Notes: a model not told the origin generated them from the letters alone. A stretch of 33,318 bases of DNA from an uncultured Oscillospiraceae bacterium (GCA_900769835.1 CAAGIE010000064.1:1-33318), one strand, 5' to 3'. Shown: positions 66 to 28,731, numbered from the stretch's first letter. Translations and numbers: made by a program.

Positions 66-389
66 TTACACCTCCAAAACTTCGATATAATCTTCGTAAT
101 CTTCCCGCAGGTTGACCAGGGTCAACATCAGTCCGGAAAGGACTGCCTGGACGGTCTCTTCTTCGTCGCAGGAAACGGGGAGGGTCAGAGTGATGCGGGC
201 ATCCTCTTCCTTGACCCGGACTTTAGCCTTGGCACCGCAAATATCATTGATGGTAGCCTCAGCCATTGTGACCAGAGCGCTGATGGCGGCGCAGACGATA
301 TCACTGCCTGCCTCTGCATAGCCGCTGTGGCCGGAGATGGAGAATCCGGTGATTCTCTCTCCCTCAGTAAAAAATTCGCATCTTGTCAT
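66..389 (-). CDS. prp: Ribosomal-processing cysteine protease Prp (YsxB family)
   Basis: 107 aa with the SGHSGYAEAGSDIVCAAIS motif (catalytic His and Cys); canonical position between rplU and rpmA. Confidence 0.95.
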   Translation of the reverse strand: MTRCEFFTEGERITGFSISGHSGYAEAGSDIVCAAISALVTMAEATINDICGAKAKVRVKEEDARITLTLPVSCDEEETVQAVLSGLMLTLVNLREDYEDYIEVLEV

Positions 390-391: not shown

Positions 392-703
392 TTACAGTGC
401 GATCTTGGTGATCTCCACCTTGGTGTAGGGCTGACGATGGCCCTGCTTCTTCTTCTCGTTCTTCTTAGCCTTGTACTTGAAGACGATGATCTTCTTAGCC
501 TTGCCGGTCTTCAGGACCTTAGCCTCGACGCAAGCACCCTCAACAACGGGAGCGCCGATCTTGGAGTTCTCGCCGTCCAGCACTGCCAGAACCTGCTCAA
601 ACTTCACGGTAGCCTCGTTCTCTGCCTCCAGCTTCTCGATGTACAGGACATCACCCTCGGAGACGGTGTACTGCTTACCGCCGGTAACGATAACTGCTTT
701 CAT
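392..703 (-). CDS. rplU: 50S ribosomal protein L21
   Basis: [14 protein letters not shown]...[17 protein letters not shown], 103 aa. The start is ATG at 703, not the ORF-track start at 781. Confidence 0.97.
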
Positions 704-727
704 TTCTTTTTCACCTACTTTATATTG

Positions 728-788
728 TGTAGACTCGCTCTTAGGGAGGGTGCGAAGGCGCACCAACTTGAACCCATTCAATGCGGCT
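728..788 (-). promoter_or_regulatory. Probable L21 leader cis-regulatory RNA
   Basis: 5' UTR of rplU contains a GGTGCG-CCTT-CGCACC hairpin and GCGAGTCT near the RBS, resembling the Firmicutes L21 leader; no covariance model was run. Confidence 0.6.
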
Positions 789-822: not shown

Positions 823-960
823 GTGTTTTTATAACTTTTTGCGGGAAAATGTGCAATTTCAGACTTCCTGAAAAGGGCTTTTGAAATAAAAAGCGGAAAA
901 CCCTTACGGCGGCAACGACTTTCGGGCTTTTCAGAAAAATAAAAATGGGAATTTGGCGGG

Positions 961-989
961 AAGACAAGGGGGGGAAAGTGTGGTATGAT
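961..989 (+). promoter_or_regulatory. Putative extended -10 sigma-A promoter of the phage-like operon
   Basis: AAGACA (961-966), 17-nt spacer containing G7, then TG-G-TATGAT (981-989). Confidence 0.55.
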
Positions 990-1013
990 AGTTATACCGG
1001 AAGCATACCACAC
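978..1013. repeat. Perfect 10-bp inverted repeat overlapping the -10 box (operator-like)
   Basis: GTGTGGTATG (978-987), 16 nt, CATACCACAC (1004-1013). Confidence 0.8.
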
Positions 1014-1054
1014 GGGCACAAAATCAAAAAAAGGGGGAATGCATCACAGAAATT

Positions 1055-1456
1055 ATGGAAATGCAGAAACCGGAGGTCAGCCCGGAGCGGATCCTGCAGG
1101 AGCTGGCCAGGATCGGATTTGCCAGAGTTCCCGATTATCTGGAAATTCGGGAGGAGACCTTACTCCTTCGTAATGATGAGAGGCTGGATGGCGCGGCCAT
1201 TGCTTCCATTGAAAAAGGCAGTGGCGGCTGGAAGGTGAAATTCTATGATAAACTCAAAGCGCTGGAACTGATGGGAAAGCACTTAGGGATGTTCAACGGC
1301 TCGGAGGAGCCGGCGCAGACCGAAAATTGCAACCTGTTGGAGTGTATCATCCAGGCTACCCGGGAGGAGGTGGATCTGCGTGATATACCGGAAATTCAGC
1401 AAGCGGCAGATGCTGGCGATGAGTTGGTGGAACCGGCCGAAGTTGCAAAATTATGA
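1055..1456 (+). CDS. Terminase small subunit, N-terminally short
   Basis: ERILQELARIGF and VKFYDKLKALELMGKHLGMF match the middle and C-terminal part of Terminase_2-type TerS; immediately upstream of TerL and overlapping it. Exact start uncertain. Confidence 0.8.
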   Translation: MEMQKPEVSPERILQELARIGFARVPDYLEIREETLLLRNDERLDGAAIASIEKGSGGWKVKFYDKLKALELMGKHLGMFNGSEEPAQTENCNLLECIIQATREEVDLRDIPEIQQAADAGDELVEPAEVAKL

Positions 1457-2630
1457 CGGCATTATATGTGATGGAGCGGTGCGCTCGGGAAAGACAGTTT
1501 GTCTGGTGGACGGATTTTTCTTATGGTCCATGGCAAATTTTTCCGGGTGCATTTTTGCGTTATGCGGCAAGACCGTATCCTCCCTCCGACGAAATGTGAT
1601 CATCCACCTGCAGGACTGGCTGGGAGGTGTGCTGGACGTGCAGGAGCATCGCAGTGAGAACAAACTGGTGGTCACCGACAAGCGGGGAAATACCAATACC
1701 TATTATCTGTTCGGCGGCAAGGACGAAGGCTCCTATCAGGTGGTGCAGGGCATCACTCTGGCAGGCGCCCTGCTGGATGAGGCGGTGCTGATGCCCCGTT
1801 CTTTTGTGGAGCAGGTCTGCGCCCGCTGCTCCGTGGAGGGCGCAAAACTTTGGTTTTCCTGCAATCCGGACGGCCCGGAGCATTGGTTCTATAAGGAGTG
1901 GATCCTGGGGAGCAAGGAGAAAAATATGCTCCACCTGCACTTCACTATGGACGATAATCCCGGCCTTTCTCAGGCAGTTCGCAACCGCTATAAGCGCATG
2001 TATTCCGGCGTGTTTTACCGCCGCTATGTGCTGGGACAGTGGTGTGTGGCAGAGGGTCTTGTGTACCGCCTGCCGCCGGAGAGCATCGTGGAGAAATTGC
2101 CGCAGTACGGTCGCTATTATATTTCTGTGGACTACGGTACCATGAACCCCTTTTCCGCGGGACTTTGGTGTGTGGCGGAGGGAAAAGCGGTGCGCCTGCG
2201 GGAGTTTTATCACAACGGCAGAGAATCGGGAAAGCAAATGACAGACGAAGAATACTATCAGCAAATCGTAAAGCTGGCGAAGGGGTATCCTGTGGAGCAG
2301 GTGATCGTGGATCCTTCGGCGGCTTCTTTTATTGCAACGATCCGTGCCCACGGAACGTTTTCGGTACGCAAAGCAAGGAACGAAGTCCTCTCCGGCATCC
2401 GCCTGGTGGCGAGATGCCTGCAGGCAGGTGTGTTGCTGATCGGCAGGGAATGCCGGGATGCCATTCGGGAATTCGGTCTTTACAGCTGGCAGGAAGCGGG
2501 GGATGTGCCGTGCAAGGAAAACGACCACGCAATGGACGACATCCGCTATTTCTGCGCCACGGTTTTGCGAAGAGACAGACTTGTGAAAAGAATTTTGGAA
2601 GGAGACGACAATGAAGAAATGGTTGTATGA
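1380..2630 (+). CDS. Terminase large subunit, PBSX family
   Basis: Walker A GAVRSGKT, Walker B ALLDEA, SCNP coupling motif, nuclease motifs VDYG, DPSA and DHAMDDIRY; GTG start with GGAGG upstream. Confidence 0.95.
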   Translation: MIYRKFSKRQMLAMSWWNRPKLQNYDGIICDGAVRSGKTVCLVDGFFLWSMANFSGCIFALCGKTVSSLRRNVIIHLQDWLGGVLDVQEHRSENKLVVTDKRGNTNTYYLFGGKDEGSYQVVQGITLAGALLDEAVLMPRSFVEQVCARCSVEGAKLWFSCNPDGPEHWFYKEWILGSKEKNMLHLHFTMDDNPGLSQAVRNRYKRMYSGVFYRRYVLGQWCVAEGLVYRLPPESIVEKLPQYGRYYISVDYGTMNPFSAGLWCVAEGKAVRLREFYHNGRESGKQMTDEEYYQQIVKLAKGYPVEQVIVDPSAASFIATIRAHGTFSVRKARNEVLSGIRLVARCLQAGVLLIGRECRDAIREFGLYSWQEAGDVPCKENDHAMDDIRYFCATVLRRDRLVKRILEGDDNEEMVV

Positions 2631-2808
2631 TCATTTTCTGCCCATGTGGGCAAAGGAAACGGTGCTGGCGGAAAATCGCAGACTGCGGCGGGAAAATCAG
2701 CACCTTTTACAGCAGACCCAGCAGAAGGATGCCTACATCCAGGGCTTGCAGCTGGGGATCCGGGCAGGCAAGCGCATCAGCATCTATAACCGGGGAGGGG
2801 AAGTATGA
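2611..2808 (+). CDS. Small hypothetical coiled-coil protein
   Basis: 65 aa with AAGGAG RBS; overlaps the TerL stop and the portal start (ATGA). Confidence 0.6.
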   Translation: MKKWLYDHFLPMWAKETVLAENRRLRRENQHLLQQTQQKDAYIQGLQLGIRAGKRISIYNRGGEV

Positions 2809-4121
2809 GTATCTATGATTATGAAAGCGCCTTTGGCGTAGAGGACAAGACCTCCTCGGCTATGCGAAAGGCCATCGACCAGTGGTTTTCGCTCTACTAC
2901 GGCGAGGAGGGGGATGGTGACCCCAGCCAGCGGATCGCCTACACCGTGGTCAATAAGATCGTAAAGACCATGTTCGGTGAGTACCAGGTGGCGGCGGATA
3001 CGGAGTTTGCCAAAATGGTGGCCCGGAGCATCGCGCCCTACCGCTTCCACGCAATGCAGATGATGCTGGTGGGCGGCGAATGCTTTCTAAAGCCCAATCC
3101 CGAGCCTGACGGTTTCAGTTTTACCCTGATTCCTCGCAACAACATCCTGGTGTTTCAGCGAAATGCTCTGGGCGAAGCGGTGGATGTGGGTACGGTGGAG
3201 CGCAGTACATTCGGAAAACATTACTACACCCTGCTGGAGCGGAGAACGGTGGATGCCGAGGGCTTCCTGACCATCGAGAATCGATTGTTCCGCTCTCTCA
3301 ACGCCCAGAGCCTGGGCGGTGAGGTGTCCCTTTCCGAGCATCCCGCCTATGGCGATCTGGTGGCAAGCCATTGCTACGAGCGCCCCGTGGGACTGGGACT
3401 TGTGAGCCTGAAGACCCCTATGCTCAACTGTGTGGACGGTACCACCGATGGCGTGGCGGTGTATGCGGCGGCCGCGGGTCTGATCCGCAATATCGACCGC
3501 AACGAAGCCCAACTCAACGGGGAATTTTCCCGTGGCGAGAGCCGCGTGATCGTATCTGCCGACCTGCTGGACACAGATAAGCAGTTCAGCCAGAATCTGT
3601 TTGTGGGTCTGGACGAAGACCCCGAGCAGGTGGGCATCACCCTCTTTTCTCCCCAGTTGCGGGAGCAGTCGTTCCTGGCAAGAAAGCAGGAATATCTGCG
3701 GAACGTGGAAAGCGTGATCGGCCTGAAGCGAGGCCTTTTGTCAGACGCCAATGTGGAGGAGCGAACCGCCACGGAGATCTCTGCATCTGCAGGCGACTAT
3801 AACCTGACTGTGATGGACTTCCAGCGGGTTTGGGAGCAGGCATTGCAAAAGATCGTGGTGCTGTGCGGGGTCCTTTGGGAGATGTACGGCCAGGGTGTTG
3901 CAGAGGTCAGTTCCCTGAATGTGGACTGGGGCAACGGCATCCTCTACGACGAGGAAAAGACCTGGCAGGACTATATGGCAATGGTGGCCGCGGGTATCCT
4001 GAAGCCGGAGATCGCTCTGGGCTGGCGGTTCAATCTGCCTGCGGATACCCCTGAACAGCAGGCGGCCATTCGGGCGAAAATGATGCCCGCAAATATTGTT
4101 GATGAAAGTGCGATGTCGTGA
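2805..4121 (+). CDS. Portal protein (A118/SPP1-like)
   Basis: 438 aa after TerL; YYTLLERRT, RTATEI and DWGNGILYD motifs typical of A118-type portals. Confidence 0.88.
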   Translation: MSIYDYESAFGVEDKTSSAMRKAIDQWFSLYYGEEGDGDPSQRIAYTVVNKIVKTMFGEYQVAADTEFAKMVARSIAPYRFHAMQMMLVGGECFLKPNPEPDGFSFTLIPRNNILVFQRNALGEAVDVGTVERSTFGKHYYTLLERRTVDAEGFLTIENRLFRSLNAQSLGGEVSLSEHPAYGDLVASHCYERPVGLGLVSLKTPMLNCVDGTTDGVAVYAAAAGLIRNIDRNEAQLNGEFSRGESRVIVSADLLDTDKQFSQNLFVGLDEDPEQVGITLFSPQLREQSFLARKQEYLRNVESVIGLKRGLLSDANVEERTATEISASAGDYNLTVMDFQRVWEQALQKIVVLCGVLWEMYGQGVAEVSSLNVDWGNGILYDEEKTWQDYMAMVAAGILKPEIALGWRFNLPADTPEQQAAIRAKMMPANIVDESAMS

Positions 4122-4219
4122 GATACCGTGCTTTTTTCATACCCACGCCGGGGTGGCGTTCATCACCCCACCACCTTACCGGGGAAAACCCGGAATACAA
4201 ATTCTTTTAGGAGGAAGCA

Positions 4220-4702
4220 ATGAAAAACATCTATGAGATCCTGGCAGACTACGGCATCGCCGTAGAAGAGGAACACCGCGGGAAATTTGAGCGCCAGCTT
4301 TTTGGCAGCTACAAATCCGCGGCGGAAATGGAGAAGAAGGACGCAAAGATCGCCCAGCTGGAGGAGGCGCTGACACAGAAGGATCAGCACCACGCCCGAG
4401 AACTGGCAGACCGGGAATTTTCCCGCCTGCTGGATACCGCCATCAGCGGAGCAAAGGGTAGAAATCAGAAAGCGATCCTGGCGCTCCTGGATACTGAAGC
4501 CCTGAAAAATGCGGAAGACCCCGCAAAGGCCACTCAGGAAGCCATCGACCAGCTCCGCAAGTCCGACGGTTACCTCTTCGAGCAAACCAAGACCCCGCCT
4601 CTGTACGCAAGAGGCACCGGCGCCGATACCGGCGCACAGAAGAAAGCCCCCGCCACACTGGCCGGTGCATTACAAGAACGTTTTAATAATGAAAGGAAGT
4701 AA
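4220..4702 (+). CDS. Capsid scaffolding protein (Phage_GP20-like)
   Basis: Charged helical 160-aa protein with KGRNQKAILALLD...LRKSDGYLF; directly before the capsid gene; AGGAGG RBS. Confidence 0.85.
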   Translation: MKNIYEILADYGIAVEEEHRGKFERQLFGSYKSAAEMEKKDAKIAQLEEALTQKDQHHARELADREFSRLLDTAISGAKGRNQKAILALLDTEALKNAEDPAKATQEAIDQLRKSDGYLFEQTKTPPLYARGTGADTGAQKKAPATLAGALQERFNNERK

Positions 4703-4708
4703 AAAATT

Positions 4709-5677
4709 ATGGCAATTACATTAGCAGAAGCAAAGGTCGGCATGGCCGACAAGGTAGATCAGCAGATCGTAGATATGTTCCGCCGCAGTTCCCTGCTGCT
4801 GGACAATATGGTGTTCGATAACGCCATTTCCCCCGGCACCGGCGGCTCCACTCTGACCTACGGTTACATCCAGCTCAAGAGCCCCTCCACCGCATCTGTC
4901 CGTACCATCAACGGCGAGTACACTCCCGGTGAGGCAAAGAAGGAAAAGAAGACCGCCAACGCCATCATCATGGGTGGCGCATTCCAGATGGACCGTGTTC
5001 TGCAGAACACCTCCGGTGCCGCCAATGAACTGGCATTCCAGGCAGAGCAGAAAATCAAGGCAACCGCCAACTATTTCCACAATCTGGTGATCAACGGCAG
5101 TGGCGAGGCCACCGACGAGGGCTACATCGCAGGCACTTTCGACGGCCTGAAGAAACTGCTCTCCGGCACCGCCAACGAGATCGTTTCTCAGGTGAGCCTG
5201 ACCACCTCCGAGGAACTGGATCAGAACTACAACGCATTTCTGGACGAAATGGATAGCTTTATCAGCTGCTTGGACGGCACTCCCTCTATGCTGCTGATGA
5301 ACCGCGCAATGCTGGTCAAGCTCCGCTCCATCGCCCGCCGCGCCGGCTACTACGAGCGCAATCAGGACGATTTCGGCAGAACTGTGGAGACCTACGCAGG
5401 TGTTCCCATGATGGATATGGGTCAGTTCTTCAACGGCACTTCCATCGAGGATGTGGTGCATACCGAGGACGGCAAGACCGCCATCTACGCAGTTTCTCTG
5501 GGTCTGGACGGCTTCCACGGCATTTCCCCTCTGGGTGACGGTGTGATCCAGTCCTACCTGCCCGACCTGTCCAGCCCCGGCGCGGTCAAGACCGGCGAAG
5601 TGGAACTGGTGGCAGGTGTTGCCCTGAAGAATACCCTCAAGGCCGCAGTCCTGAAGGATATCGCTATCGGCGGTTAA
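4709..5677 (+). CDS. Major capsid protein
   Basis: 322 aa following the scaffold; MAITLAEAK start, FDGLKKLL and GEVELVAGVALKN resemble HK97-fold Firmicutes capsids. Confidence 0.88.
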   Translation: MAITLAEAKVGMADKVDQQIVDMFRRSSLLLDNMVFDNAISPGTGGSTLTYGYIQLKSPSTASVRTINGEYTPGEAKKEKKTANAIIMGGAFQMDRVLQNTSGAANELAFQAEQKIKATANYFHNLVINGSGEATDEGYIAGTFDGLKKLLSGTANEIVSQVSLTTSEELDQNYNAFLDEMDSFISCLDGTPSMLLMNRAMLVKLRSIARRAGYYERNQDDFGRTVETYAGVPMMDMGQFFNGTSIEDVVHTEDGKTAIYAVSLGLDGFHGISPLGDGVIQSYLPDLSSPGAVKTGEVELVAGVALKNTLKAAVLKDIAIGG

Positions 5678-5680
5678 TCT

Positions 5681-6010
5681 ATGGTGGATTACGAGTTCTA
5701 TCGGGATGCCTATCTGGGCAGTCAGATCCCTGAAAAGGCGTTCCCCGAGGCAGAGGCAAGAGCCAGAGAGTTTTTGCAGTATCTGCAGAGAAATTTCCAG
5801 GTAAATTCCAGCGGTGAGCAGGCAGAAAAAATGGCCTTGTGCGCCGTGGCGGAGGGGGTCTATCACGAGGAAAAGCGTGGCAGGATCTCCTCTGCCAGCG
5901 CCGGCAGCGTGTCGGTGCATTATCGGGGTAGTGAGGAAAAGAGCCTGCGTCGGGCGCTGCTGCAAAAGGCCGCCATTTACCTGGACATCCACAGAGGAGT
6001 GAGCGGATGA
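5681..6010 (+). CDS. Head-tail connector/adaptor
   Basis: MVDYEFYRDAYLG...ALCAVAE...SASAGSVSVHY pattern; first gene after the capsid. Confidence 0.75.
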   Translation: MVDYEFYRDAYLGSQIPEKAFPEAEARAREFLQYLQRNFQVNSSGEQAEKMALCAVAEGVYHEEKRGRISSASAGSVSVHYRGSEEKSLRRALLQKAAIYLDIHRGVSG

Positions 6011-6372
6011 TGGAGTATGATCTGTGCCGGGATACGGTAACGGTCTACCGCCTGACAGAGGAAGGCGTCTTTCGGCAGGTGCTGGAGGACTGCTTTCTGA
6101 GTTGGGAGGAGCAGACGGTGACCGATCTTTACGGCACCCGCAAAGGCGCGGAATTTCTGCTGATCCACCCGGGAAAGACCCAAGCGGTTTTTCCCGGCGA
6201 CCGGGTGATGGCAGGGGTTGGCCCCGAGATCGCAAAAGAGGAGTGGGGCAGTTTCATTCCCGCGGCAGTACCCGGTCTGGGTCAGGTCAGTTATGTGCGG
6301 CTCTATCGCTGGGGCGGTCAGTTGCAGCACTGCGAAGCAGGTAGCCGTCAGCCGGTGCGTCCCCAATTGTAG
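6007..6372 (+). CDS. Putative head closure/stopper protein
   Basis: 121 aa, DTVTVYR...GDRV...HCEA beta-rich pattern; neck position. Confidence 0.55.
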   Translation: MMEYDLCRDTVTVYRLTEEGVFRQVLEDCFLSWEEQTVTDLYGTRKGAEFLLIHPGKTQAVFPGDRVMAGVGPEIAKEEWGSFIPAAVPGLGQVSYVRLYRWGGQLQHCEAGSRQPVRPQL

Positions 6373-6380
6373 GAGGAAGT

Positions 6381-6791
6381 ATGACAGATTTGGAAAAAGT
6401 AAAAGCGTGGCTGGATCTGTGTCCTTATTTGCAGATCGAGAGTCGTGTGGATACCACCCAGGACTGGCCCGTCAGCGCCGGTCTGTACCCCCGCACCCAG
6501 CGGGTGACCGGCAGGACGGAGGATGTGCTGGGCGGTAAGAAAATGCGCATCAGCCAGACCTATTTTCTGCGCCTGGCATTGCCGGAAGGCGAAGAAGCGG
6601 CAGAACGGATGCAGAAGATCCAAAATTGGATTTTTACCCAGAATATCAACGGAAATGTGCCGTTTTTGGGCGAAAATGTATCCATTTGGGGTGAAGACGG
6701 CCGTCTGGAAAAAGCCGGTCAGGTGGGTATGTCCCTGTATGTGCTGACGCTGAAAACAGAGTTTACAGTAATCGTGGAAGGAGTAAATTGA
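6381..6791 (+). CDS. Putative tail terminator/neck protein
   Basis: 136 aa with AGGAGG RBS, directly before the tail tube gene; contains EDVLGG. Confidence 0.55.
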   Translation: MTDLEKVKAWLDLCPYLQIESRVDTTQDWPVSAGLYPRTQRVTGRTEDVLGGKKMRISQTYFLRLALPEGEEAAERMQKIQNWIFTQNINGNVPFLGENVSIWGEDGRLEKAGQVGMSLYVLTLKTEFTVIVEGVN

Positions 6792-7270
6792 TGGCAAAAA
6801 TCGAAAGAAAGTATCTGGCCCATTACGTGGATGTGGCCACTGTCCAGGGTTCTCCCGTTTATGAGCGACTGGGCAAAGACCTGGAGGAATACAGCCCCGA
6901 ACTGTCCGCCCAGGTGGAAACCAAAAAGAACATTCTGGGTGAAACCTCCGTGGTAATCTCCGGCTATGAAAAGACCGCTTCTGTGGAGTCTTACTATGCC
7001 GAGACCGGCTCTGGTCTGTTCACCCGCCTGCAGGAGATCATCGATAACGGCCTGGTGCTGGAGGATCTGAAGACCCGGGTGGTGGAGGTAAAACTGTGGG
7101 AGGCTGAGAGCGAGGGCGTGTATCCCGCAGTCTGCGAGGAGGCCTATATCGAGGTCAATTCCTACGGCGGCGACACCACCGGCTACCAGATCCCCTTTAC
7201 CCTGCACTACACCGGTGTCAAGGAAAAGGGCACCTTCAACGTGACCGAAAAGACCTTCGCAAAAGCGTAA
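6791..7270 (+). CDS. Major tail tube protein
   Basis: MAKIERKYLAHYVD...RLGKDLEEYSPEL...KNILGE...SYGGDTTGYQIPF; 159 aa, acidic, in tail position; no sheath gene, so a non-contractile tail. Confidence 0.82.
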   Translation: MAKIERKYLAHYVDVATVQGSPVYERLGKDLEEYSPELSAQVETKKNILGETSVVISGYEKTASVESYYAETGSGLFTRLQEIIDNGLVLEDLKTRVVEVKLWEAESEGVYPAVCEEAYIEVNSYGGDTTGYQIPFTLHYTGVKEKGTFNVTEKTFAKA

Positions 7271-7280
7271 GGGGTGAAAT

Positions 7281-7706
7281 ATGGAGAAGATCACATTTGA
7301 TAACGGTGTGCGGGAGTTTTCCGTCAATGGCAGAGGTGTCCTGCGGTTCAATCCTCAGGATCCCAATGTGTACTTGCGGCTGACCCAGGCAGAGGAAAAG
7401 ATCCGTAAAATTGAGCAGTCCCTGCCCAAAAATGCAGAAAATGGGGAGGAGGGCGCCCGCCTTTTGTATGAGGCGGACCGACAACTCAAGGAGATCCTGA
7501 ACTGGGTCTTTGGCGCCGGCAACGATTTCGAGGAGATCGCAGGCAATGTGAACTTACTGGCCACGGCCAAAAACGGCCGCACCGTAGTGGAAAACTTCCT
7601 GGAGGCCATCGCACCCGCGTTGCAGGCAGGGGCCGAAGCCGGTGTCCGCCTGCAGGTGGAGGCCGCACGAAAAGCGGCAAAGGCCAGAAGGATGGCGGCG
7701 CGATGA
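7281..7706 (+). CDS. Tail assembly chaperone
   Basis: 141 aa after the tail tube gene; LRFNPQDPN motif. Confidence 0.6.
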   Translation: MEKITFDNGVREFSVNGRGVLRFNPQDPNVYLRLTQAEEKIRKIEQSLPKNAENGEEGARLLYEADRQLKEILNWVFGAGNDFEEIAGNVNLLATAKNGRTVVENFLEAIAPALQAGAEAGVRLQVEAARKAAKARRMAAR

Positions 7707-8251
7707 GCCTGTGGGAGTTGCCACAAACGGCGAAGATCGGGGAGCGGGTCTACACCCTCCATACGGACTACCGTGACATTCTTGAGATCTTCTCCTATCT
7801 GGACAACGAGGATCTTCCCGAAGCGGTGCGCTGGCAGATCGCCCTGGGACTTTTCTTCGAGGAGGAGATCCCCCCGGAGGATATGCCCCGGGCGGCGGAA
7901 TACTTTTCCTGGTTCGTGGCCTGCGGGCAGAATCGGGGAAAGGGTGAGCGGCTGATGTGCTGGCAGCAGGATGCGCCGATGATCGTGGCGGAGATCAATA
8001 AAGCGGTAGGGCAGGAGATACGCGTCCTGCCCTACCTGCACTGGTGGACCTTTTTGGGATGGTTTCATGCCATCGGAGAGGGTCAGTTTTCCGCCGTGGT
8101 GGCCCTGCGCCATAAACTCAATCGCGGGCAGGCGCTGGAGCCGTGGGAAAAGACATTTTATCGGGAAAACCGGGCGGTGGTGGATCTCCGCAGACGGTAT
8201 TCCCGGCAGGAGCTGGAAGAAAAAGAAAGACTGGAGCAGCTCCTGAAATAG
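7703..8251 (+). CDS. Bacteriophage Gp15-family protein (A118 gp15-like tail chaperone)
   Basis: TDYRDIL...WQQDAPMI...YLHWWTFLGWF...VVALR signature; directly before the tape measure gene. Confidence 0.82.
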   Translation: MSLWELPQTAKIGERVYTLHTDYRDILEIFSYLDNEDLPEAVRWQIALGLFFEEEIPPEDMPRAAEYFSWFVACGQNRGKGERLMCWQQDAPMIVAEINKAVGQEIRVLPYLHWWTFLGWFHAIGEGQFSAVVALRHKLNRGQALEPWEKTFYRENRAVVDLRRRYSRQELEEKERLEQLLK

Positions 8252-8255
8252 ACCG

Positions 8256-8280
8256 AAGGGCCGCCCTTGTGCGGCCCTTT
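8256..8280 (+). terminator. Internal GC-rich hairpin (weak terminator or attenuator)
   Basis: AAGGGCCGC-CCTTGT-GCGGCCCTT with only a short T run. Confidence 0.5.
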
Positions 8281-8297
8281 GTGGAGGGAGTGAAACA

Positions 8298-9374
8298 ATG
8301 AGCAAAAAGGATATCAAAGAAACGATTTTAGGAAAATGGTGGCAAAAGAGCAGTGCAAAATCCTTTTTGGATGCCCTGAAGGAAGCGTTGAAAAATGCGT
8401 TTACTCTGCAGGAGCGAATTGCCACTGCCACCTCAAAGACCGTGGGGAAAGCACTGGCGACATTTGATGAAGTCAACACACTGAAAATGCCGTCCACCGG
8501 TAGCGGAACTACGGTGCAACAGACCGGCAGTTCCGTAAACAATCTGGTGGGTACGGCGATGTCCGCGTTGATCGCAATGACCGGTAAACTCTCCCAGATC
8601 TCCAGTTTTGCGAAAATGCTGGCAAAATTGCCCGGTCTGCTGCTGAGCCTGATCAGCCCCGGTCAGCAGAGCATTTCGATCTTCGAGCGGATCACAGGTA
8701 TTTTCCGCCAGACGGAGATCACCGCCGATGCAGTGGGGCAGAAGACCCAGGCGGTGGCACTGGCGGTGGGCCGTCTGTCCGGCGCCTGGTCCGGCGCATC
8801 TTTTGCGATGCAGCAGTGGCAGCAGACGGGTCGGGCGATGGAAAATACCGCGCCGATGATCCAAAATCTGGGTGAACTCACCAAGAATGTAAAACTTCTG
8901 GGCGGCGGCTTTCAGGACTGCAAACGGGCGGCGGATCAGACGCTGAAGTCCATCCAGACCAACTGGGCGAATCTGAACCAATGGTTCCGCACCAATGTTG
9001 CCAATCCGATGATCCGGGATGTGAACAATATGCTCAAGGGCATCACCAACGGATTCAATCAGGTGGCTTACAGCACCAAAAATGTGAGTACAGGCGCGCC
9101 GATCTCCACGCCGAAGATCCCCCAACTTGCCCAGGGCGCGGTGTTGCCCGCCAATAAGCCTTTTCTGGCAGTGGTGGGCGATCAGAAAAACGGCACCAAC
9201 GTGGAAGCACCCTTGGATACCATCCGCCAGGCAGTGGCAGAGGTGGTGGGCAGCAACGATGTGGTGATCCAGTTCAACGGCGATCTTGCCCAACTGGCGC
9301 GGGTGCTTCGCCCTGCCATTATTAAGGAAAATGCAAGAGTCGGCGGCGGTTTGATCGTAAAGGAGGTGTTGTGA
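8298..9374 (+). CDS. Short tape measure protein
   Basis: 358 aa, Ala/Thr/Gln-rich and helical; ALATFDEVNTL and C-terminal IPQLAQGAVLPANKPFLAVVGDQKNGTNVEAP motifs of clostridial tape measures; expected position. Confidence 0.78.
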   Translation: MSKKDIKETILGKWWQKSSAKSFLDALKEALKNAFTLQERIATATSKTVGKALATFDEVNTLKMPSTGSGTTVQQTGSSVNNLVGTAMSALIAMTGKLSQISSFAKMLAKLPGLLLSLISPGQQSISIFERITGIFRQTEITADAVGQKTQAVALAVGRLSGAWSGASFAMQQWQQTGRAMENTAPMIQNLGELTKNVKLLGGGFQDCKRAADQTLKSIQTNWANLNQWFRTNVANPMIRDVNNMLKGITNGFNQVAYSTKNVSTGAPISTPKIPQLAQGAVLPANKPFLAVVGDQKNGTNVEAPLDTIRQAVAEVVGSNDVVIQFNGDLAQLARVLRPAIIKENARVGGGLIVKEVL

Positions 9375-9763
9375 TGGATAGCCGTGATCTGTTTATGATC
9401 GACGGAGTGGGTTATCGTGTCCACGTGCTGAAACTGACCCGAAAATTCTCGGTGCTGGATTCGGAAAAGGCGGGTCGTACTATGGACGGCCAGATGTACC
9501 GGGAGCCCATCGGCACCTACTACAACTACTCCATGACCGTGGCGCCTTACGGGGACAATCAGGATCTGGAAAAATTCTGGGAGGTGATCTCCCAGCCCAA
9601 GAAAAGTTACACCTGCCGCTTCCCTTACGGACAGAAGACCCTGACCCAGAAGATGTACATCACCGGCGGTGAGCAGGATCTGCTTCGGGCGGGAAAAGAT
9701 GGTAATTTCTGGGGCGAACTCTCCGTAAACTTTATTGCGATGGGGCCAAAGGTGGTGCCGTAA
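9374..9763 (+). CDS. Distal tail (Dit)-like protein
   Basis: 129 aa right after the tape measure; AGRTMDGQMYREPIG motif; AGGAGG RBS. Confidence 0.65.
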   Translation: MDSRDLFMIDGVGYRVHVLKLTRKFSVLDSEKAGRTMDGQMYREPIGTYYNYSMTVAPYGDNQDLEKFWEVISQPKKSYTCRFPYGQKTLTQKMYITGGEQDLLRAGKDGNFWGELSVNFIAMGPKVVP

Positions 9764-11478
9764 TGATAGAAGTCAAATATTTGGATATTCCGCCGGAAAT
9801 CGAGGAAAAACTGTCTTTTACTTGCGAAAATATTGGAGAAAATGCAAGTGCAGAAAAACTGACATTTCTGGAAAAAGAGCCGCTGTGGGCCACAACGGAG
9901 TACTTCGGCTGGCCTTTGGATGGTAGTCGCAGACTGTTAAAAGAAACGGAAAGCACCACCCTTTGGAGCCGTGATTTCAGCGCAACGGAGTCGGGTTATC
10001 TGGGGGCCAGTGTGCTGGGCGGCGCTGTGCTGAACAGTCGCAGTACCGCAGTCAAAGACGGCCCTTTTCTGGAGGTCGTCGTGTCCGAGCCGGTGACGGT
10101 GCCGGGCATCACCTTCGAGTTTTCACCCGAGGAGGATCGCTGGTGCAGCACTGTGGAACTGACGGTTTACCGCGGGGAGGAGATGGTGGAAAAACAGACC
10201 CTGCATCCCGATAACCCTCGCTGGTGCTATGCCCTTGCAGAAAGTTTTGACCGTCTGACAGTTCGCCTTTTGGAAACCAGCGTCCCCGGTTGTTACGCAA
10301 AACTCAACCGACTGTATCTGGGTCGGGTGCTGGTGTATTCCCACGGGGAGTTGGAGTCGGTGAAACTGGTGAACGAGGCAGACCCCACCCTCAGCGAACT
10401 GACGGTGGATACCATGACCGTGGAACTGCGGGATCTGCAGGAGCGCCAGCTTCTGCCCCGGAAGGATCAGCGGATAGAACTGTACCGGGACGGCCGCCTG
10501 CTTGTGAGCTATGGCATCGAAAGTTTCAGCCGTCAGGAAAAGAACCGCTACACCTTGCGATGCCGCTCCGCGGTGGGTCAGCTGGAGGATACCTTCCTAG
10601 GTGGCATTTATGAAAATGCCCCCATAGAATCGGTGCTGGAGCAGATTCTGGAGGGGCTGGAGGTTCAGGTGGAGGAATGCCTGAAAGATGTTCGTATCAG
10701 CGGTTATTTGCCGGTCTGCACCCGCCGTCAGGCGCTGCAGCAGGTGGCCTTTGCGGCGGGCGCGTTGGTGAGCACCAGAGGCACCCGCGGAATCCTCCTG
10801 CGGGGAATTGCCCGTCAGGTGGACGGTAGTTTTCAGACCCAGATGCTCTTCCGGGATGGCGTGGTGCAAACCGATTCCGGCGTGAGCCGTCTGGAGGCGG
10901 TGGCCCATAAATATACCCCCACCCAGACGCGGGAAACTTTGGTGGACGGAGAACATTTCAGCGGGGAGAATGTACTGCTGACCTTTGATACGCCCCATCA
11001 TAGCTATACCATCACCGGCGGCAGGATCACCGAGCAGGGAGCGAACCATATCCGCCTGACTGCCAATGGCGCAGTGACCGTTACCGCCTGCACTTATAGC
11101 CATACCACCGTTCGCCATATTCGGGATCTGGCATCCCGGGGCGCGTTCAGCGCAGACCGCATTGAAAAGGTGGAGGCGGCGACCCTGATCCACAGTGGAA
11201 ATGTGCAGGCGCTTCTGGATCGGCTGGATGGGGTGTATGCTCTGCGGCAGACATTGACGCAGACTGTGGTGGTGAACGGTCAGTTTGCAGGTCAGCGCGT
11301 GGCGCTGACAGACCCCTTCGGTGATATGCTCAAAGGCTATATAACGGAGATGGAAAGCAATCTGACCCCCGGCGGACAAACCGCCCGCATCACCCTGCTG
11401 GGTCAGCAGGCTTCGCCGGAGACCGAGGTGCGTTACGCAGGTATGTTTTATGCAGGAGATCAGGAGGTGGCGCTATGA
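9763..11478 (+). CDS. Tail tip/baseplate hub protein
   Basis: 571 aa after Dit; GYLPVCTRRQALQQVAFAAG hub-like segment. Confidence 0.65.
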   Translation: MIEVKYLDIPPEIEEKLSFTCENIGENASAEKLTFLEKEPLWATTEYFGWPLDGSRRLLKETESTTLWSRDFSATESGYLGASVLGGAVLNSRSTAVKDGPFLEVVVSEPVTVPGITFEFSPEEDRWCSTVELTVYRGEEMVEKQTLHPDNPRWCYALAESFDRLTVRLLETSVPGCYAKLNRLYLGRVLVYSHGELESVKLVNEADPTLSELTVDTMTVELRDLQERQLLPRKDQRIELYRDGRLLVSYGIESFSRQEKNRYTLRCRSAVGQLEDTFLGGIYENAPIESVLEQILEGLEVQVEECLKDVRISGYLPVCTRRQALQQVAFAAGALVSTRGTRGILLRGIARQVDGSFQTQMLFRDGVVQTDSGVSRLEAVAHKYTPTQTRETLVDGEHFSGENVLLTFDTPHHSYTITGGRITEQGANHIRLTANGAVTVTACTYSHTTVRHIRDLASRGAFSADRIEKVEAATLIHSGNVQALLDRLDGVYALRQTLTQTVVVNGQFAGQRVALTDPFGDMLKGYITEMESNLTPGGQTARITLLGQQASPETEVRYAGMFYAGDQEVAL

Positions 11479-11855
11479 GATTTGTTACCGACAGAACCTG
11501 GGCGGATGTACTGGCGGGTACGGAAAAAGGACGCTATACCACCCGGGATCTGGATCGGGTGGAGCAGGCGGTGGAATATCTGGGGAGTTTTTTGCCCGCG
11601 CTGGGCATTTCTCTGGAACTGACCACCTGCACCCAATGGAGCAAGACCCGGAAAATGCCCACCCGGGAGTCTATGGAGCGGTATTTGCAGAATGTCCGCG
11701 GGCTTTGCGCCTGTCTGGGACTGGAGCCGGAGTTGCCGGATAGCATGGAAAGACTGACTTATCAGGATGCAAACCGTATCGAGCTTGCTCTGGAGCAGGC
11801 AGAAAAAAGACTGGAGCAGCTTCTGGGCGATTATCAAATGAGGAAGGAGCAATAA
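11475..11855 (+). CDS. Tail-associated hypothetical protein
   Basis: 126 aa, ATGA-coupled; contains DLDRVE and DANRIE motifs. Confidence 0.6.
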   Translation: MRFVTDRTWADVLAGTEKGRYTTRDLDRVEQAVEYLGSFLPALGISLELTTCTQWSKTRKMPTRESMERYLQNVRGLCACLGLEPELPDSMERLTYQDANRIELALEQAEKRLEQLLGDYQMRKEQ

Positions 11856-11856
11856 A

Positions 11857-12549
11857 ATGAAAGACAGAGTACCCGGCGCGCCGGGTCAATACAAAGCGGT
11901 GATCACCGCCGACGAGCAGATGAAACTCTCTGCGGAGGAGCCTTTTATCATCACTCTGACCAGGGACGATCACCCCATCACAGAGGGCACGCCTTACAGT
12001 AAGGCGGCGGTGCTGCCGGATAGTCTGGCAGCATCCCTCTGCCCCGGTGCAGAGGACCCCACACCTGCGGATGCCTTTGCGGCGCTCCACGCAAAAGCCG
12101 TGGAATCCCAAGAACATCCGGGCTGTTACTACCGTGTGGTAGCGGGGGAAACGGAGTGGATCAATCCCCCTATGCTGTATGGGCAAGAGTATCGCACCAC
12201 CCGTCGGCATAACGGCAAAGTGGTCTATACGAAGCTGGTGGATATGGGCGACTTGCCCTGGGGCACCGTGAGCGAGCCGGGCTATAAATGGGTAGACCTG
12301 GGAGCGGAAGCGGAATACATCCTGGCCTGGAAAGCAAGCCTCAGCAAAGAGACCCTTGCGGACGACGACAGAACCAAAATTATCGTGCGCTATGGCATCC
12401 CCTATGCGAAGCACGGCACCCAGCAGGTCATCGCAGATATCTATTTCAGAGGCAGAAGCGCAGTGCTGTCCACCACCGGGATCATGGACCACGGGGAGCA
12501 GGCGAATTTGCAGATCGAGTATACGAAGGAGGATTGGATATGCAAGTAA
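11857..12549 (+). CDS. Putative tail fibre/baseplate protein
   Basis: 230 aa; MKDRVP...EGTPYSKA N-terminus and EWINPPM...EYRTTRRHNGKVVYTKLVD fibre-like module. Confidence 0.6.
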   Translation: MKDRVPGAPGQYKAVITADEQMKLSAEEPFIITLTRDDHPITEGTPYSKAAVLPDSLAASLCPGAEDPTPADAFAALHAKAVESQEHPGCYYRVVAGETEWINPPMLYGQEYRTTRRHNGKVVYTKLVDMGDLPWGTVSEPGYKWVDLGAEAEYILAWKASLSKETLADDDRTKIIVRYGIPYAKHGTQQVIADIYFRGRSAVLSTTGIMDHGEQANLQIEYTKEDWICK

Positions 12550-12582
12550 TCGAGCGTATCTTTGGTAAGGAGGTGGCGGCAG

Positions 12583-12774
12583 ATGCAGTATGTTAAGCAG
12601 AATTTCGAGGACGGCACCGTGCTGACCGCCCAGCATCTGAACCACATAGAGGACGGCATCGCAGAACTGATCCCTCAGGTCACTACTATGGATGCCGGTA
12701 AGTTTCTGCGGGTGTCTTCCGATGGCAGATGGCAGGCGGAGCAGTTGATCGATGCGACGGAGGTGGGCATGTGA
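12583..12774 (+). CDS. Small fibre-associated protein
   Basis: AAGGAGGT RBS then ATG at 12583; MQYVKQNFEDGTVLTAQHLNHIEDGI, 63 aa. Confidence 0.65.
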   Translation: MQYVKQNFEDGTVLTAQHLNHIEDGIAELIPQVTTMDAGKFLRVSSDGRWQAEQLIDATEVGM

Positions 12775-13430
12775 GCGATTGCGTACTGATGCCCGCCGTC
12801 CACTTTCAGGATATCTGCAATGCGGTGCGGGAAAAGAGCGGCAAGCAAGCCCCTTTGTGCTCGGGGGATGTGGCGGAGGAGATCCGCAATCTCCCCAGCG
12901 GTGCCAACGATGCCTTTTGGGATGCTTACCAGCAAAACGGCAACCGCGTCAATTATTATCAGCGGTTTATGCACGATGGCTGGAACGATGAAACCTTCCA
13001 ACCCAAGTATGCCATCACCTGCCGGGACAGTTCCACCAGTGGCTGTTCCGTGTTCTACAATGCCCGTATGACCACGATCCCCGTGCCGGTGATCGTCAGC
13101 GGTGTGTCTGCCAAGGAGATGTTCAGCCAATGCACAAAACTGGAAACCATCTCCCGACTGGTGATGGACAATGTAACGGAAACCAGCGGTATGTTTACCG
13201 GCTGCGCGCGTCTGCGGGAACTGAATGTGGAGGGCAGAATCTCCACCAATCTGAGCCTTGCGGCGGCAGAAAATTTGTCGGAGGAGAGCGCGGAAAAGGT
13301 GGTGCTTTGCCTGCGGGATATGTCAGGTATCGGCGAGCGGACACTGACGTTGCACAACGCGGTGGGCAACCGTATGTCTCCCGACATGAAAGCGCTCGCC
13401 ACCATCAAAAACTGGATTTTGGTTTATTAA
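12771..13430 (+). CDS. BspA/DUF285-like leucine-rich-repeat protein, putative receptor-binding protein
   Basis: GTG start after GGAGG; EMFSQCTKLETI and GMFTGCARLREL repeats; ends ATIKNWILVY. Confidence 0.6.
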   Translation: MSDCVLMPAVHFQDICNAVREKSGKQAPLCSGDVAEEIRNLPSGANDAFWDAYQQNGNRVNYYQRFMHDGWNDETFQPKYAITCRDSSTSGCSVFYNARMTTIPVPVIVSGVSAKEMFSQCTKLETISRLVMDNVTETSGMFTGCARLRELNVEGRISTNLSLAAAENLSEESAEKVVLCLRDMSGIGERTLTLHNAVGNRMSPDMKALATIKNWILVY

Positions 13431-13440
13431 GGAGGACAGG

Positions 13441-13593
13441 ATGAAAACAGTCACACAAAGAATTCTCACTGCCGAGGAAGGTATGTACCTGACCGACGGC
13501 GAACATTACGGCAAAACGGTGATTCTCCCTATGGAAGCCGACCACACTTTGTGGCGCGAGGTGCGGGAAGAAGAGGTGCCGGATGAGTTTTAA
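13441..13593 (+). CDS. Small 50-aa hypothetical protein (not in ORF track)
   Basis: AAGGAGG RBS; MKTVTQRILTAEEGMYLTDGEHYGKTVILPMEADHTLWREVREEEVPDEF; fills the gap and overlaps the amidase start. Confidence 0.7.
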   Translation: MKTVTQRILTAEEGMYLTDGEHYGKTVILPMEADHTLWREVREEEVPDEF

Positions 13594-14494
13594 AATTGCT
13601 TACGGAGCCGGTCACTTTCGCCACACCCCCGGCAACAAGGTTTCCAGAGAATTTGACCCCGATGAAACCAGGGAATGGATCCTCAATGACCGGGTAGCCC
13701 GCCACTTTAGCGATGCCGCAAAGCAGTATCCGGATGTGGAGCTTTTGCGTACCGATGACGTCACCGGTGAAACGGACGTGGGTCTGTCTGCGCGATGCCA
13801 AAAGGCCAACGATTTCAATGCCGACTTCTGCCTTTCCATTCACCACAATGCCGGTGCCAACCTGACAAATGCCGGTGGTGTGGTGGCGTTTTCCTACCCC
13901 GGCAGCACTAAGGGCGCGGTGTACAGAAACGCCATCTATGACCACTGTATTGCCGCCGGCGGATTGCGGGGCAATCGGGCGTTGCCCAAGGCCACCGCGG
14001 GCTTTTATGTCCTGCGCTATACTGCGGCGCCCTGCGTGCTGATGGAGTACGGTTTTATGGACAGCAAACTGGATGCCCCGGTGATCCTGCAGGAGGAATA
14101 TTCCCGAAAAATGGCCTATGCCACTATGGCGGCCATTGCCGAGGTGGCAGGTCTTGAGAAACGGAAAACGCCTACGGACACCTACACTTTGGAGGAATTT
14201 ATCCGGGAGGTGCAGGCGGCCATTGGCGCAGAGGTGGACGGCATTGCCGGTCCGGAAACCATCGGCAAGACCGTCACCCTTTCCATAGAGAAAAATGATA
14301 CCCACCCCGCGGTAAAGCCGGTGCAAAAGCGCCTGTTCGCTCTGGGTTATACCCAGGTGGGCGAAGCCGACGGCATCGCCGGCCCTAAGTTTCGGGACGC
14401 GGTGCTGGCTTTCCAGCAGGATAACGACTGCTGGCGGGACGGTGTGATCACCGCCGCCAATAAGACCTGGCGCAAACTCCTGGGAATGGAGTAG
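13583..14494 (+). CDS. Endolysin: N-acetylmuramoyl-L-alanine amidase (Amidase_3) with C-terminal peptidoglycan-binding domains
   Basis: GAGH, REW, SIHHNA and LMEYGFMD zinc/catalytic motifs; VDGIAGPET, ADGIAGPK and AVLAFQ PG_binding_1 motifs. Confidence 0.92.
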   Translation: MSFKIAYGAGHFRHTPGNKVSREFDPDETREWILNDRVARHFSDAAKQYPDVELLRTDDVTGETDVGLSARCQKANDFNADFCLSIHHNAGANLTNAGGVVAFSYPGSTKGAVYRNAIYDHCIAAGGLRGNRALPKATAGFYVLRYTAAPCVLMEYGFMDSKLDAPVILQEEYSRKMAYATMAAIAEVAGLEKRKTPTDTYTLEEFIREVQAAIGAEVDGIAGPETIGKTVTLSIEKNDTHPAVKPVQKRLFALGYTQVGEADGIAGPKFRDAVLAFQQDNDCWRDGVITAANKTWRKLLGME

Positions 14495-14507
14495 GGGAGG
14501 TGTACCA

Positions 14508-14765
14508 ATGAGTGAAGCGATTGCCGTTGCCATCATCACCGGGGGACTGTCCCTTGCGGGTGTGGTGGTGACCTGCCTTGCCACTGCCAAGAAAAACGAA
14601 AATGCAGTGCGGATCAGCCAGGCGGTGACCGACACCAAGATCGACGAGCTGACCCGGGAAGTGCGGGAGCATAACGGCTTTGCCCGACGGATGCCGGTGG
14701 TGGAGGAGCAGATCAAAGTCCTGAACCACCGCATCACAGACCTGGAAACAAAGGAGAGAGTATGA
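14508..14765 (+). CDS. Holin-associated membrane protein (one TM plus coiled coil)
   Basis: Hydrophobic N-terminus followed by KIDELTREVREHN...RITDLE; lysis-cassette position. Confidence 0.65.
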   Translation: MSEAIAVAIITGGLSLAGVVVTCLATAKKNENAVRISQAVTDTKIDELTREVREHNGFARRMPVVEEQIKVLNHRITDLETKERV

Positions 14766-14944
14766 AAGAACTGATCAACGGATTGGCGAAACTTCTGAAA
14801 GTAAAGACCATCGTGACCCTGGTGGTGATCAGCGTATTTGCGGCACTGGCTATGTCGGCTCGACTGCCTGCAGACAACGTGATGATCGTAGTGTCTATGG
14901 TGGTGTCGTTCTATTTCGGCACCCAGCACGAGAAGGATAAATAA
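14762..14944 (+). CDS. Putative holin
   Basis: 60 aa with two hydrophobic segments and a VVSFYFGTQ plus charged C-terminus. Confidence 0.7.
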   Translation: MKELINGLAKLLKVKTIVTLVVISVFAALAMSARLPADNVMIVVSMVVSFYFGTQHEKDK

Positions 14945-14950
14945 AAGACG

Positions 14951-14987
14951 AAAAAGGGCGGCCTCAGGGCCGCCCGATTATGTTTTT
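14951..14987. terminator. Hairpin closing the phage-like operon (possibly bidirectional terminator)
   Basis: AAAAA-GGGCGGCC-TCAG-GGCCGCCC followed by GATTATGTTTTT. Confidence 0.65.
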
Positions 14988-15085
14988 GCCCCGAAGCGGC
15001 AAATTTTTGTGAGAAAATCCCTCGAAATGGCAAAAAACGAGAAAAATCCCCTTTGTTTTTGTTCAACTAAACGACAGATATCTCG

Positions 15086-15114
15086 TTGACTTTTGCTTTT
15101 TTGTATTATATAAT
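15086..15114 (+). promoter_or_regulatory. Sigma-A promoter of giant surface protein A
   Basis: TTGACT, 17 nt, TATAAT. Confidence 0.8.
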
Positions 15115-15180
15115 GTACAAGAGTATTTGTAGGACTATACCTACTCACTTTTAAGAACTCTGGAGAAAGGGGTTTTTCAA

Positions 15181-22122: not shown

Positions 22123-22137
22123 TTGGAGGTGAAAGCT

Positions 22138-22272: not shown

Positions 22273-22287
22273 TCGGCAAACAACCTG

Positions 22288-22321
22288 AAAACCCCCGACT
22301 GTTTCGGCAGTCGGGGGTTTT
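22288..22321 (+). terminator. Rho-independent terminator
   Basis: AAAACCCCCGACTG-TTTCGG-CAGTCGGGGGTTTT. Confidence 0.88.
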
Positions 22322-22411
22322 ACTTTATACATTATAATATATAGAGACTGCGCCGTGGGAAAATGGGCGAAAAGTGCAAATAATCTTTCTTTTTTAGGGG
22401 AAATTGCATAA

Positions 22412-28725: not shown

Positions 28726-28731
28726 GCAAGA

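Follow-up and report, generated by a model that had tools for sequence, protein, structure and literature searches.

What does a bacterium keep when it keeps the genes for a phage particle and nothing else of the phage? The question is raised by a stretch of 33,318 nt (GCA_900769835.1, CAAGIE010000064.1:1-33318), here called the window, which is the entire contig C64 of an assembly (G000; 1.24 Mb, 173 contigs, 83 % complete) of an uncultured bacterium of the genus Faecousia (Oscillospiraceae). Twenty-one co-directional open reading frames (ORFs) on the + strand (1055-14944) form an operon that covers window positions 947-15003 with its promoter and terminators. An original prediction, made from this stretch of DNA, had read it as a gene transfer agent (GTA). 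Genomes of relatives are denoted by G-numbers and retrieved loci by L-numbers. Our analysis points the same way: the cluster is probably a siphophage morphogenesis-and-lysis operon that has been domesticated, a GTA-like 'viriform' which a lineage within Faecousia maintains.

The operon leads from the small terminase (TerS) and large terminase (TerL) over a 65-aa ORF, portal, scaffold, capsid, connector and tail genes to an amidase and two holin-like genes. Intergenic gaps were -77, -20, -4, 98, 6, 3 and -4 nt for genes 1-8 and 8, -4, 10, -4, 46, -4, -1, -4, 1, 179, 152, 13 and -4 nt for genes 8-21. Pfam recognized Terminase_2, Terminase_6N, SPP1_portal, Phage_scaffold, weakly SU10_MCP, Phage_Gp15 and Amidase_3 with PG_binding_1; 17 of the 21 ORFs had a PHROGs match. 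In TerL, a GxxxxGKT P-loop, an LLDEA box and nuclease-type acidic residues are retained. The predicted complete, translationally coupled packaging-to-lysis set with intact motifs was thus confirmed, as were the promoter at its start, the closing hairpins and the host promoter beyond them (Table 1). The fibre label given to 11857-13430 is tentative, neither Pfam nor PHROGs matching there. As predicted, no integrase, repressor or replication family was matched among the scanned window ORFs. Searches of the window for tRNA genes and Rfam families were negative, and att-like direct repeats of at least 9 nt flanking the cluster were not found. The GC content of the cluster (56.2 % versus 53.2 % in the genome) is not anomalous, 9.7 % of 14-kb windows being equally high.

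In the window and in the scanned relatives, a chromosomal phage-like structural cluster thus occurs free of replication, integration and lysogeny functions, as expected of a GTA. The adjoining integrase, repressor, replication module and att repeats of an intact temperate prophage are lacking. An F-type tailocin would consist of tail genes alone, whereas the cluster also has conserved genes for terminase, portal, scaffold and capsid. Phage satellites, i.e., phage-inducible chromosomal islands (PICI) and their capsid-forming variants (cf-PICI), have their own integrase and replication initiator and use the tails of a helper, whereas this cluster includes a full tail module. Among 17 further loci scanned upstream, terS had host-type or insertion-sequence genes as neighbours in 15 and phage replication-type genes in two; downstream, host genes followed in four of four scanned loci. 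A flank call based on BLAST to G000 alone was abandoned: it left 19 loci without assignment, while Pfam detected host genes in 15 of the 17 scanned, and it misled because host genes are missing from the incomplete G000. The incompleteness and fragmentation of G000 are also the only point for reading the cluster as late genes of a functional temperate phage with its early genes elsewhere. This reading is barely credible, since in many independent assemblies the cluster is bordered by host genes at both ends, G000 contains a single TerL and a single capsid gene, and the true phage relatives keep a helix-turn-helix TerS and a minor capsid gene.

The history of the cluster was followed in G032, which has the same arrangement adjoining rplU. 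Obg served as host marker, because rpoB is absent from the G000 assembly and secA is cut by a contig end; the Obg proteins of G032 and G000 are 97 % identical. All 21 genes are intact in the comparison of the two copies, with dN/dS values of 0.03-0.39 at dS values of 0.46-1.7, indicating purifying selection. Maintenance in a host lineage under purifying selection, a mark of GTAs, was thus observed. The capsid proteins share 99.1 % of their amino acids at 90.9 % nucleotide identity (dN/dS 0.027), and TerS, TerL and portal had dN/dS values of 0.09-0.17. Identity to G032 was 80-99 % for head genes, 54-58 % for the tail-tip genes and 48-60 % if the tape measure is included. For the capsid gene, dS was 0.46; of the two short host genes beside the cluster, prp had a dS of 0.45 and rplU one of 0.18. 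The clusters of G000 and G032 therefore look like copies that co-diverged under strong constraint and were not recently transferred. In a second same-site species (L041), TerL identity was 72 %, though rplU and prp were 95 % identical.

These data bear on the possibility that the operon is an inert prophage remnant which lost its early genes and has yet to degrade. Remnants do exist in the genus (in G022, only capsid residues 1-149 are left, inside a 35 kb contig), and the presence among species is patchy. Intact genes at such dN/dS and dS values, three derived changes shared by dozens of species, and capsid matches without an internal stop in 110 carrier genomes speak against it. The remnant reading is already contradicted by selection and conservation and is very improbable. 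The statement that this is not a decaying prophage has held: besides the 21 intact genes under purifying selection, 66 of 69 classifiable loci share the stand-alone form.

Related stretches encoding a relative numbered 153 in the species-genome collection and 224 in IMG/VR; the best 80 of each were analysed. Within these 160 retrieved loci, 69 were classifiable; the 66 stand-alone loci have a TerS without the N-terminal DNA-binding part, which is present in the other three. In seven of seven stand-alone TerS the Terminase_2 match begins at profile position 57-62, in four of four prophage TerS at position 1-4, with the N-terminal helix-turn-helix part kept. The TerS of phage record MT835595.1 also retains the N-terminal domain. 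TerS length was rejected as a class marker, as first-start ORF lengths overlapped between the classes, an artefact of upstream in-frame starts; Pfam coverage separated them. The second derived character is a missing gene. Portal and capsid gene lay 383-1240 nt apart in 60 of 67 loci; in the remaining seven the distance was 2603-3969 nt, and a Phage_min_cap2 gene lay in the gap of all nine phage-type loci scanned (the seven long-gap loci and two prophages). The window cluster has no gene for this minor capsid protein 2 between portal and scaffold. The third character is a promoter box upstream of terS, described below. The recurrence of these three shared derived characters at a dozen or more sites speaks for a single domestication with later spread or rearrangement and against repeated decay.

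Two of the minor capsid protein 2 genes of prophage relatives (L101:6978-8651 and L029:4505-6139) encode C-terminal domains of nuclease or toxin type (PBECR2 or PBECR3; Ntox50), as is the case in MuF-type polymorphic toxins.

Within the genus, the distribution of the cluster is patchy. The capsid gene was present in 13 of 36 Faecousia genomes of a first draw, in 110 of 400 other Faecousia species genomes and in 16 of 94 high-quality genomes of the genus, G000 counted. None of 24 genomes, each from a different further family of the order, had it; among 247 genomes from other genera of the Oscillospiraceae it occurred in two, both with phage-type loci. The original prediction also turned on whether near-identical complete phages exist; none occurred in the collections searched. 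The best capsid match to a deposited phage was MT835595.1 (66 %), followed by Clostridium perfringens phages (49 %; genomes of about 39-40.5 kb), and prophage relatives reached 68-80 %. Full prophages with integrase, repressor and replication genes beside a related late region were present in G030 (capsid identity 68-69 %) and G014 (77-79 %). No contig among the best 80 of 224 in IMG/VR exceeded 29.5 kb, and many measured 12.8-17.5 kb. In G023 the cluster lies near rplU with two host genes between, and in G015, G017 and G018 stand-alone clusters occupy other host sites. At one of these (L021, G015:C45, 78-1314), genes for a barnase-type ribonuclease and barstar are located just upstream of the capsule-type genes that flank the cluster.

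A quick TerL tree grouped most loci of the same host site and placed the phage-type loci in a clade of their own. The Obg tree, a poorly resolved single-gene tree of 32 genomes, had the stand-alone carriers on one side and two supported clades without the cluster. The rplU-prp-obg region was free of cluster genes in 16 of 16 genomes examined; none of them keeps the right flank of the window, so that no clean insertion boundary could be drawn. The predicted synteny and vertical inheritance were borne out in part: the same-site TerL grouping and the matching dS of G000 and G032 agree with them, whereas the patchy presence, the many sites, double copies and differing tail modules do not.

Several observations weigh against domestication to a GTA or complicate its history. 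The occurrence is patchy, the chromosomal sites number a dozen or more, and for about a dozen genomes two capsid matches are listed. Tail modules vary from cluster to cluster, and G017 with a tail module of only three genes is a further departure from a simple vertical story. Beyond G032, capsid identity does not track Obg: Obg identity of 92 % goes with capsid identity of 80-85 % (G009, G018), and 89 % with 89 % (G017). No regulator of the cluster was identified, and Pfam and PHROGs scans yielded no xre/xpf-type regulators. SPP1 gp7, a relative of minor capsid protein 2, aids infection, and the loss of this protein could impair DNA delivery. Finally, the phage relatives of the capsid protein have genomes of 37-43 kb; hence there might be room in the head for the complete 14 kb locus, contrary to a strict GTA definition.

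The G017 variant (L020, G017:C67, 480-5503) has three genes for proteins of 123, 507 and 576 aa between the head-tail adaptor and an M15 endolysin. The 576-aa protein contains DUF859, and no homologue of tube, chaperone or tape measure was found; this stand-alone variant may be short-tailed.

Many chromosomal sites, two copies in some genomes and the swapping of whole tail modules between clusters would also fit a mobile element, helper-dependent or phage-inducible, that travels among species and sites and is activated by a factor from a phage or another element. Neither integrase, transposase and replication gene nor a flanking repeat was found, however; same-site clusters group in the TerL tree, and capsid dS equals flank dS between G000 and G032. 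Further evidence on this alternative came from the promoter box.

The box consists of a direct repeat and an extended -10 element; the strict search pattern was GGGAA-N6-GGGAAG, about 19 nt, TGnTAnnnT. It was present in 37 of 55 terS-upstream regions, with clear variants in several others. All 44 matches in 2.43 Mb (80 genome loci) lay upstream of terS, 39 within 360 nt and five further away; the prophage loci had none, and the whole G000 assembly has a single match, at 947-989. The 400 genus genomes yielded the box in 87, versus 10 matches of a reversed control. Capsid gene and box occurred together in 66 of them, the capsid gene alone in 44, the box alone in 21 and neither in 269; the kin in this table are not independent, and at least nine of the 21 box-only genomes look like chance matches. 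In other genera of the family, only chance-like matches were obtained (10 of 250 genomes). We presume that the layout, with 11-bp repeat spacing, an extended -10 and a poor -35, recalls promoters of winged-helix activators.

Box copies in carrier genomes were examined at 20 loci, most of them off the capsid contig. Eleven (L247, L248, L251-L255, L257-L259 and L261; G032 included) have the box 170-300 nt upstream of dnaA-dnaN-S4-recF-gyrB. Others have it before small DUF6291 genes, one has it before rpmH-rnpA-yidC-jag, and one is another cluster copy. The 6-nt spacer of the box varies between lineages, but in nine of 11 genomes the cluster copy and the dnaA copy are identical in it or one base apart. 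Among 30 genomes from the first draw, G032 and G017 alone had the box ahead of dnaA; no cluster-less genome did. The dnaA contig of G000 ends 136 nt upstream of dnaA. With the same box and extended -10 at both promoters and spacers that change together, the data point to a single, putative DNA-binding factor governing the cluster and dnaA. That particle production is wired into the control of chromosome replication is a tentative proposal, which we regard as possible but doubtful. If true, the arrangement would parallel, in a Gram-positive host, the link that CtrA makes between origin and GTA in alphaproteobacteria. Because the box is nearly confined to carrier genomes, factor or box may have arrived with the phage ancestor. 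The DnaA proteins of G000 (G000:C113) and G032 are 86 % identical (L268, L267), with 64-70 % identity to other Faecousia; Obg identity across the same genomes is 84-92 %.

Small DUF6291 genes (69-98 aa) start about 50 nt downstream of the box in L070 (4747-4953), L074 (396-689), L263, L264, L265, L266 and L249. The L070 gene and the cluster promoter are divergently oriented; in L263 and L264 the small gene stands ahead of holB and a gene for a PSP1-domain protein. The domain matches the N-terminal part of proteins of about 230 aa that occur in phages. DUF6291 was rejected as general regulator, being found in one of five carrier genomes searched and not found in G000. The box before these phage-related genes, like its near restriction to carrier genomes, suits a mobile element, but the rarity of DUF6291 and the lack of the box in prophage loci do not; together with the missing mobility genes, this leaves the mobile element quite improbable.

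Other species differ in the leader between box and terS. In a clade with clusters near DUF218 or sfsA (L040, L043-L047, L049, L051, L052, L054-L056, L076), a G+C-rich hairpin with a T run precedes the terS ribosome binding site; its resemblance to a terminator suggests attenuation or antitermination control. The leader of the window has no such hairpin. The leaders of L058, L066, L068, L083 and L110 contain a palindromic element of about 40 nt with a core like GCCACG..CACTGGCTCGCAATGAC, and in some species short tandem repeats of the GTTGATAGTTGA type are inserted.

Under the domestication reading, a transcript from the 947-989 promoter would span all 21 coupled genes and stop at the hairpins (14956-15003). 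From scaffold, capsid protein and portal a head would be built, which TerL and a TerS deprived of its sequence-reading domain would fill with any DNA, probably by a headful mechanism; packaging without sequence preference is predicted from the loss of this domain. Connectors, tube, short tape measure, hub and variable tip proteins would form a short non-contractile tail. Amidase and holins would lyse the producer and release the particles, whose release is expected from the intact and constrained state of the head, tail and lysis genes. Lacking replication and integration functions, the system cannot spread as a phage. Particle formation, random packaging and DNA delivery to other cells are steps that we infer.

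The same genes could also form a killer particle of the PBSX type, in which DNA is packaged incidentally and the benefit lies in killing competitors. A stand-alone architecture, built-in lysis genes and tail-tip genes evolving as fast as observed relative to G032 are equally expected of such particles, and the loss of the minor capsid protein fits particles without a need to deliver DNA. The available part of the report on the GTA of Faecalibacterium prausnitzii (FpGTA) raises this alternative for that system, too (PMC12946183). For the Faecousia cluster we consider it unlikely: the Pfam and PHROGs scans detected neither a sheath or contractile-tail family, as in PBSX-like elements and R-type tailocins, nor the regulators already mentioned, the tail layout is one of tape measure and hub, and the strong constraint on TerS, TerL and portal suggests that packaging matters.

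Table 1. Features of the window, in order of position; gene roles are by profile match unless stated otherwise
Feature	Position	Strand	Basis and remarks
prp	66-389	-	host left flank, profile match
rplU	392-781	-	host left flank, profile match
rplU promoter	822-794	-	
Conserved promoter	947-989	+	direct repeat GGGAA-N6-GGGAAG (947-963), extended -10 TGgTATGAT (981-989)
Promoter-like site	961-989	+	AAGACA-17-TATGAT, TG ahead of second hexamer
Small terminase TerS, 133 aa	1055-1456	+	Terminase_2 positions 60-135 of 141 only
Large terminase TerL, 416 aa	1380-2630	+	Terminase_6N; phrog_2, E 3.5e-51
65-aa ORF between terL and portal	2611-2808	+	no Pfam or PHROGs match; position kept in most related loci
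Portal, 438 aa	2805-4121	+	SPP1_portal; phrog_533, E 8e-49
Head scaffolding protein	4220-4702	+	Phage_scaffold
Major capsid protein, 322 aa	4709-5677	+	phrog_212, E 3.7e-66
Head-tail connector genes	5681-6791	+	adaptor 5681-6010; 6007-6372; tail-completion-like 6381-6791 (phrog_541, phrog_3266)
Probable major tail (tube) protein, 160 aa	6788-7270	+	position before the chaperones; phrog_3099 (function unnamed), E 1.9e-46
Two tail assembly chaperone-type genes	7281-7706, 7703-8251	+	Phage_Gp15; phrog_11299, phrog_706
Short tape-measure candidate, 358 aa	8298-9374	+	position after the chaperones
Distal-tail-type small protein, 130 aa	9371-9763	+	phrog_1194; presumed role from position
Baseplate hub / tail-associated lysin-type protein, 571 aa	9763-11478	+	structure model and Foldseek
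Three fast-evolving tail-tip genes	11475-11855, 11857-12549, 12729-13430	+	only a weak LRR_5 match
Endolysin	13583-14494	+	Amidase_3 and PG_binding_1
Two holin-like membrane proteins, 85 and 60 aa	14508-14944	+	phrog_1863, phrog_13256; hydrophobic segments in both
Two terminator-like hairpins closing the operon	14956-14975, 14985-15003	+	
Strong promoter ahead of next gene	15086-15114	+	
Two giant secreted surface-type genes	15181-22122 (2313 aa), 22447-28725 (about 2080 aa)	+	host right flank; signal peptides

Some assignments in Table 1 deserve comment. The middle connector ORF is conserved in related loci in spite of its missing PHROGs match. The C-terminal part of the tape-measure candidate matches longer proteins at the same place, of 598 aa in G015 and of 699 and 932 aa in prophages. 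The model of the 571-aa protein (pLDDT 78, pTM 0.76) retrieved the Mu gp44 hub, the tail-associated lysin of phage NF5, Listeria prophage gp18 and the baseplates of 80alpha and p2 in Foldseek with E values of 1e-12 to 1e-13. The capsid protein model was too poor for use (pLDDT 32), and a PDB sequence search with the tube, distal-tail, hub and capsid proteins had no matches. The three tail-tip genes are candidates for receptor binding.

To the left, the rplU-prp arrangement extends to obg in relatives. On the right, four tandem + strand genes with signal peptides occupy 15181-31880: the two giant paralogues, with weak Flg_new, GLUG and metallo-beta-lactamase matches, and two lipoprotein-like paralogues of about 500 aa, one with a Lactamase_B match. 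On the minus strand, a frame of 4573 aa (15151-28872) runs antisense and codon-aligned over both giant genes and the gap between them. The giant sense genes have no TTA, CTA or TCA in 4407 codons, while six cluster genes have 11 in 2414. We read the long frame as an antisense shadow, because it has no family match and an odd composition.

Outside the alphaproteobacteria there are few GTAs, and from sequence alone they are not easily distinguished from dead prophages. In this one genus, three genomic marks, the loss of the TerS domain, the loss of minor capsid protein 2 and the promoter box, set a domesticated cluster apart from the living phages related to it. Roughly one in four of the species genomes searched carries the cluster, in a very large genus of animal gut bacteria; if host DNA is indeed moved by the particles, these would be a major path for the flow of genes within the gut communities of livestock and poultry. 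The dnaA-linked box offers a direct handle on Gram-positive host control of such particles. A literature search, bioRxiv supplements lying outside it, found no paper pairing 'Faecousia' with 'gene transfer agent'.

Several known systems share parts of this design. RcGTA of Rhodobacter capsulatus is a host-kept head-tail cluster of about 14-15 kb with a short tail, release by lysis and a TerS without DNA-binding domain; it packages about 4 kb and is expressed under a host regulator, CtrA, that also acts at the replication origin. Its lysis, head-spike and regulator genes are at other loci, and it has one conserved locus across a large clade. The Faecousia cluster resembles it in host maintenance, size and TerS, and CtrA control is a possible parallel to the dnaA-linked box; however, it belongs to an unrelated phylum and would be a separate domestication, with lysis genes in the operon and many sites. 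PBSX of Bacillus subtilis, a defective phage-like element of about 28 kb, packages host DNA and cannot propagate. Like the Faecousia cluster it is a Gram-positive element with terminase, head, tail and lysis genes, but its contractile tail, own repressor and late sigma-type factor had no counterpart in the Pfam and PHROGs scans of the cluster. The cf-PICI satellites, small elements with an integrase, replication genes and no tails, likewise encode their own packaging and capsid genes; the Faecousia cluster differs by its full tail module and by the lack of integrase and replication gene.

The closest parallels come from the Clostridia, and the statement in the original prediction that no GTA had been characterised there is outdated by the publication of FpGTA in 2026 (PMC12946183). 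In the part of that report available, FpGTA comprises particles of 40 nm with about 9 kb of packaged DNA, supported by proteomics, which are podovirus-like in appearance and encoded by two operons of 10.5 and 5.5 kb about 125 kb apart; GTA-like packaging is reported there in Oscillospiraceae (PMC12946183). The text supplements of PMC12946183 do not mention the genus Faecousia. Candidate GTA clusters of Coprocola, in the accessible part of the preprint, have a core of 14 kb and a separate lysis cluster of 3.6 kb, and read coverage of virus-like particles supports packaging (bioRxiv 10.64898/2026.07.08.737213). Both systems were compared with the Faecousia cluster by their descriptions. As described, the Coprocola clusters also belong to a gut commensal of the Clostridia and combine, within about 14 kb, small and large terminase with structural genes and no integration or replication genes, but keep apart the lysis genes that Faecousia has within the operon. 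FpGTA, as far as described, shares with the Faecousia cluster the order (Oscillospirales), a gut anaerobe as host, a phage-derived operon in which a TerS without DNA-binding domain comes first and TerL, portal, scaffold and capsid come next, the lack of replication and integration genes, and lysis genes as part of the system; the Faecousia cluster, as read from its genes, differs from it in being a single operon of 14 kb that encodes a tail of the tape-measure type and has lysis genes of its own.

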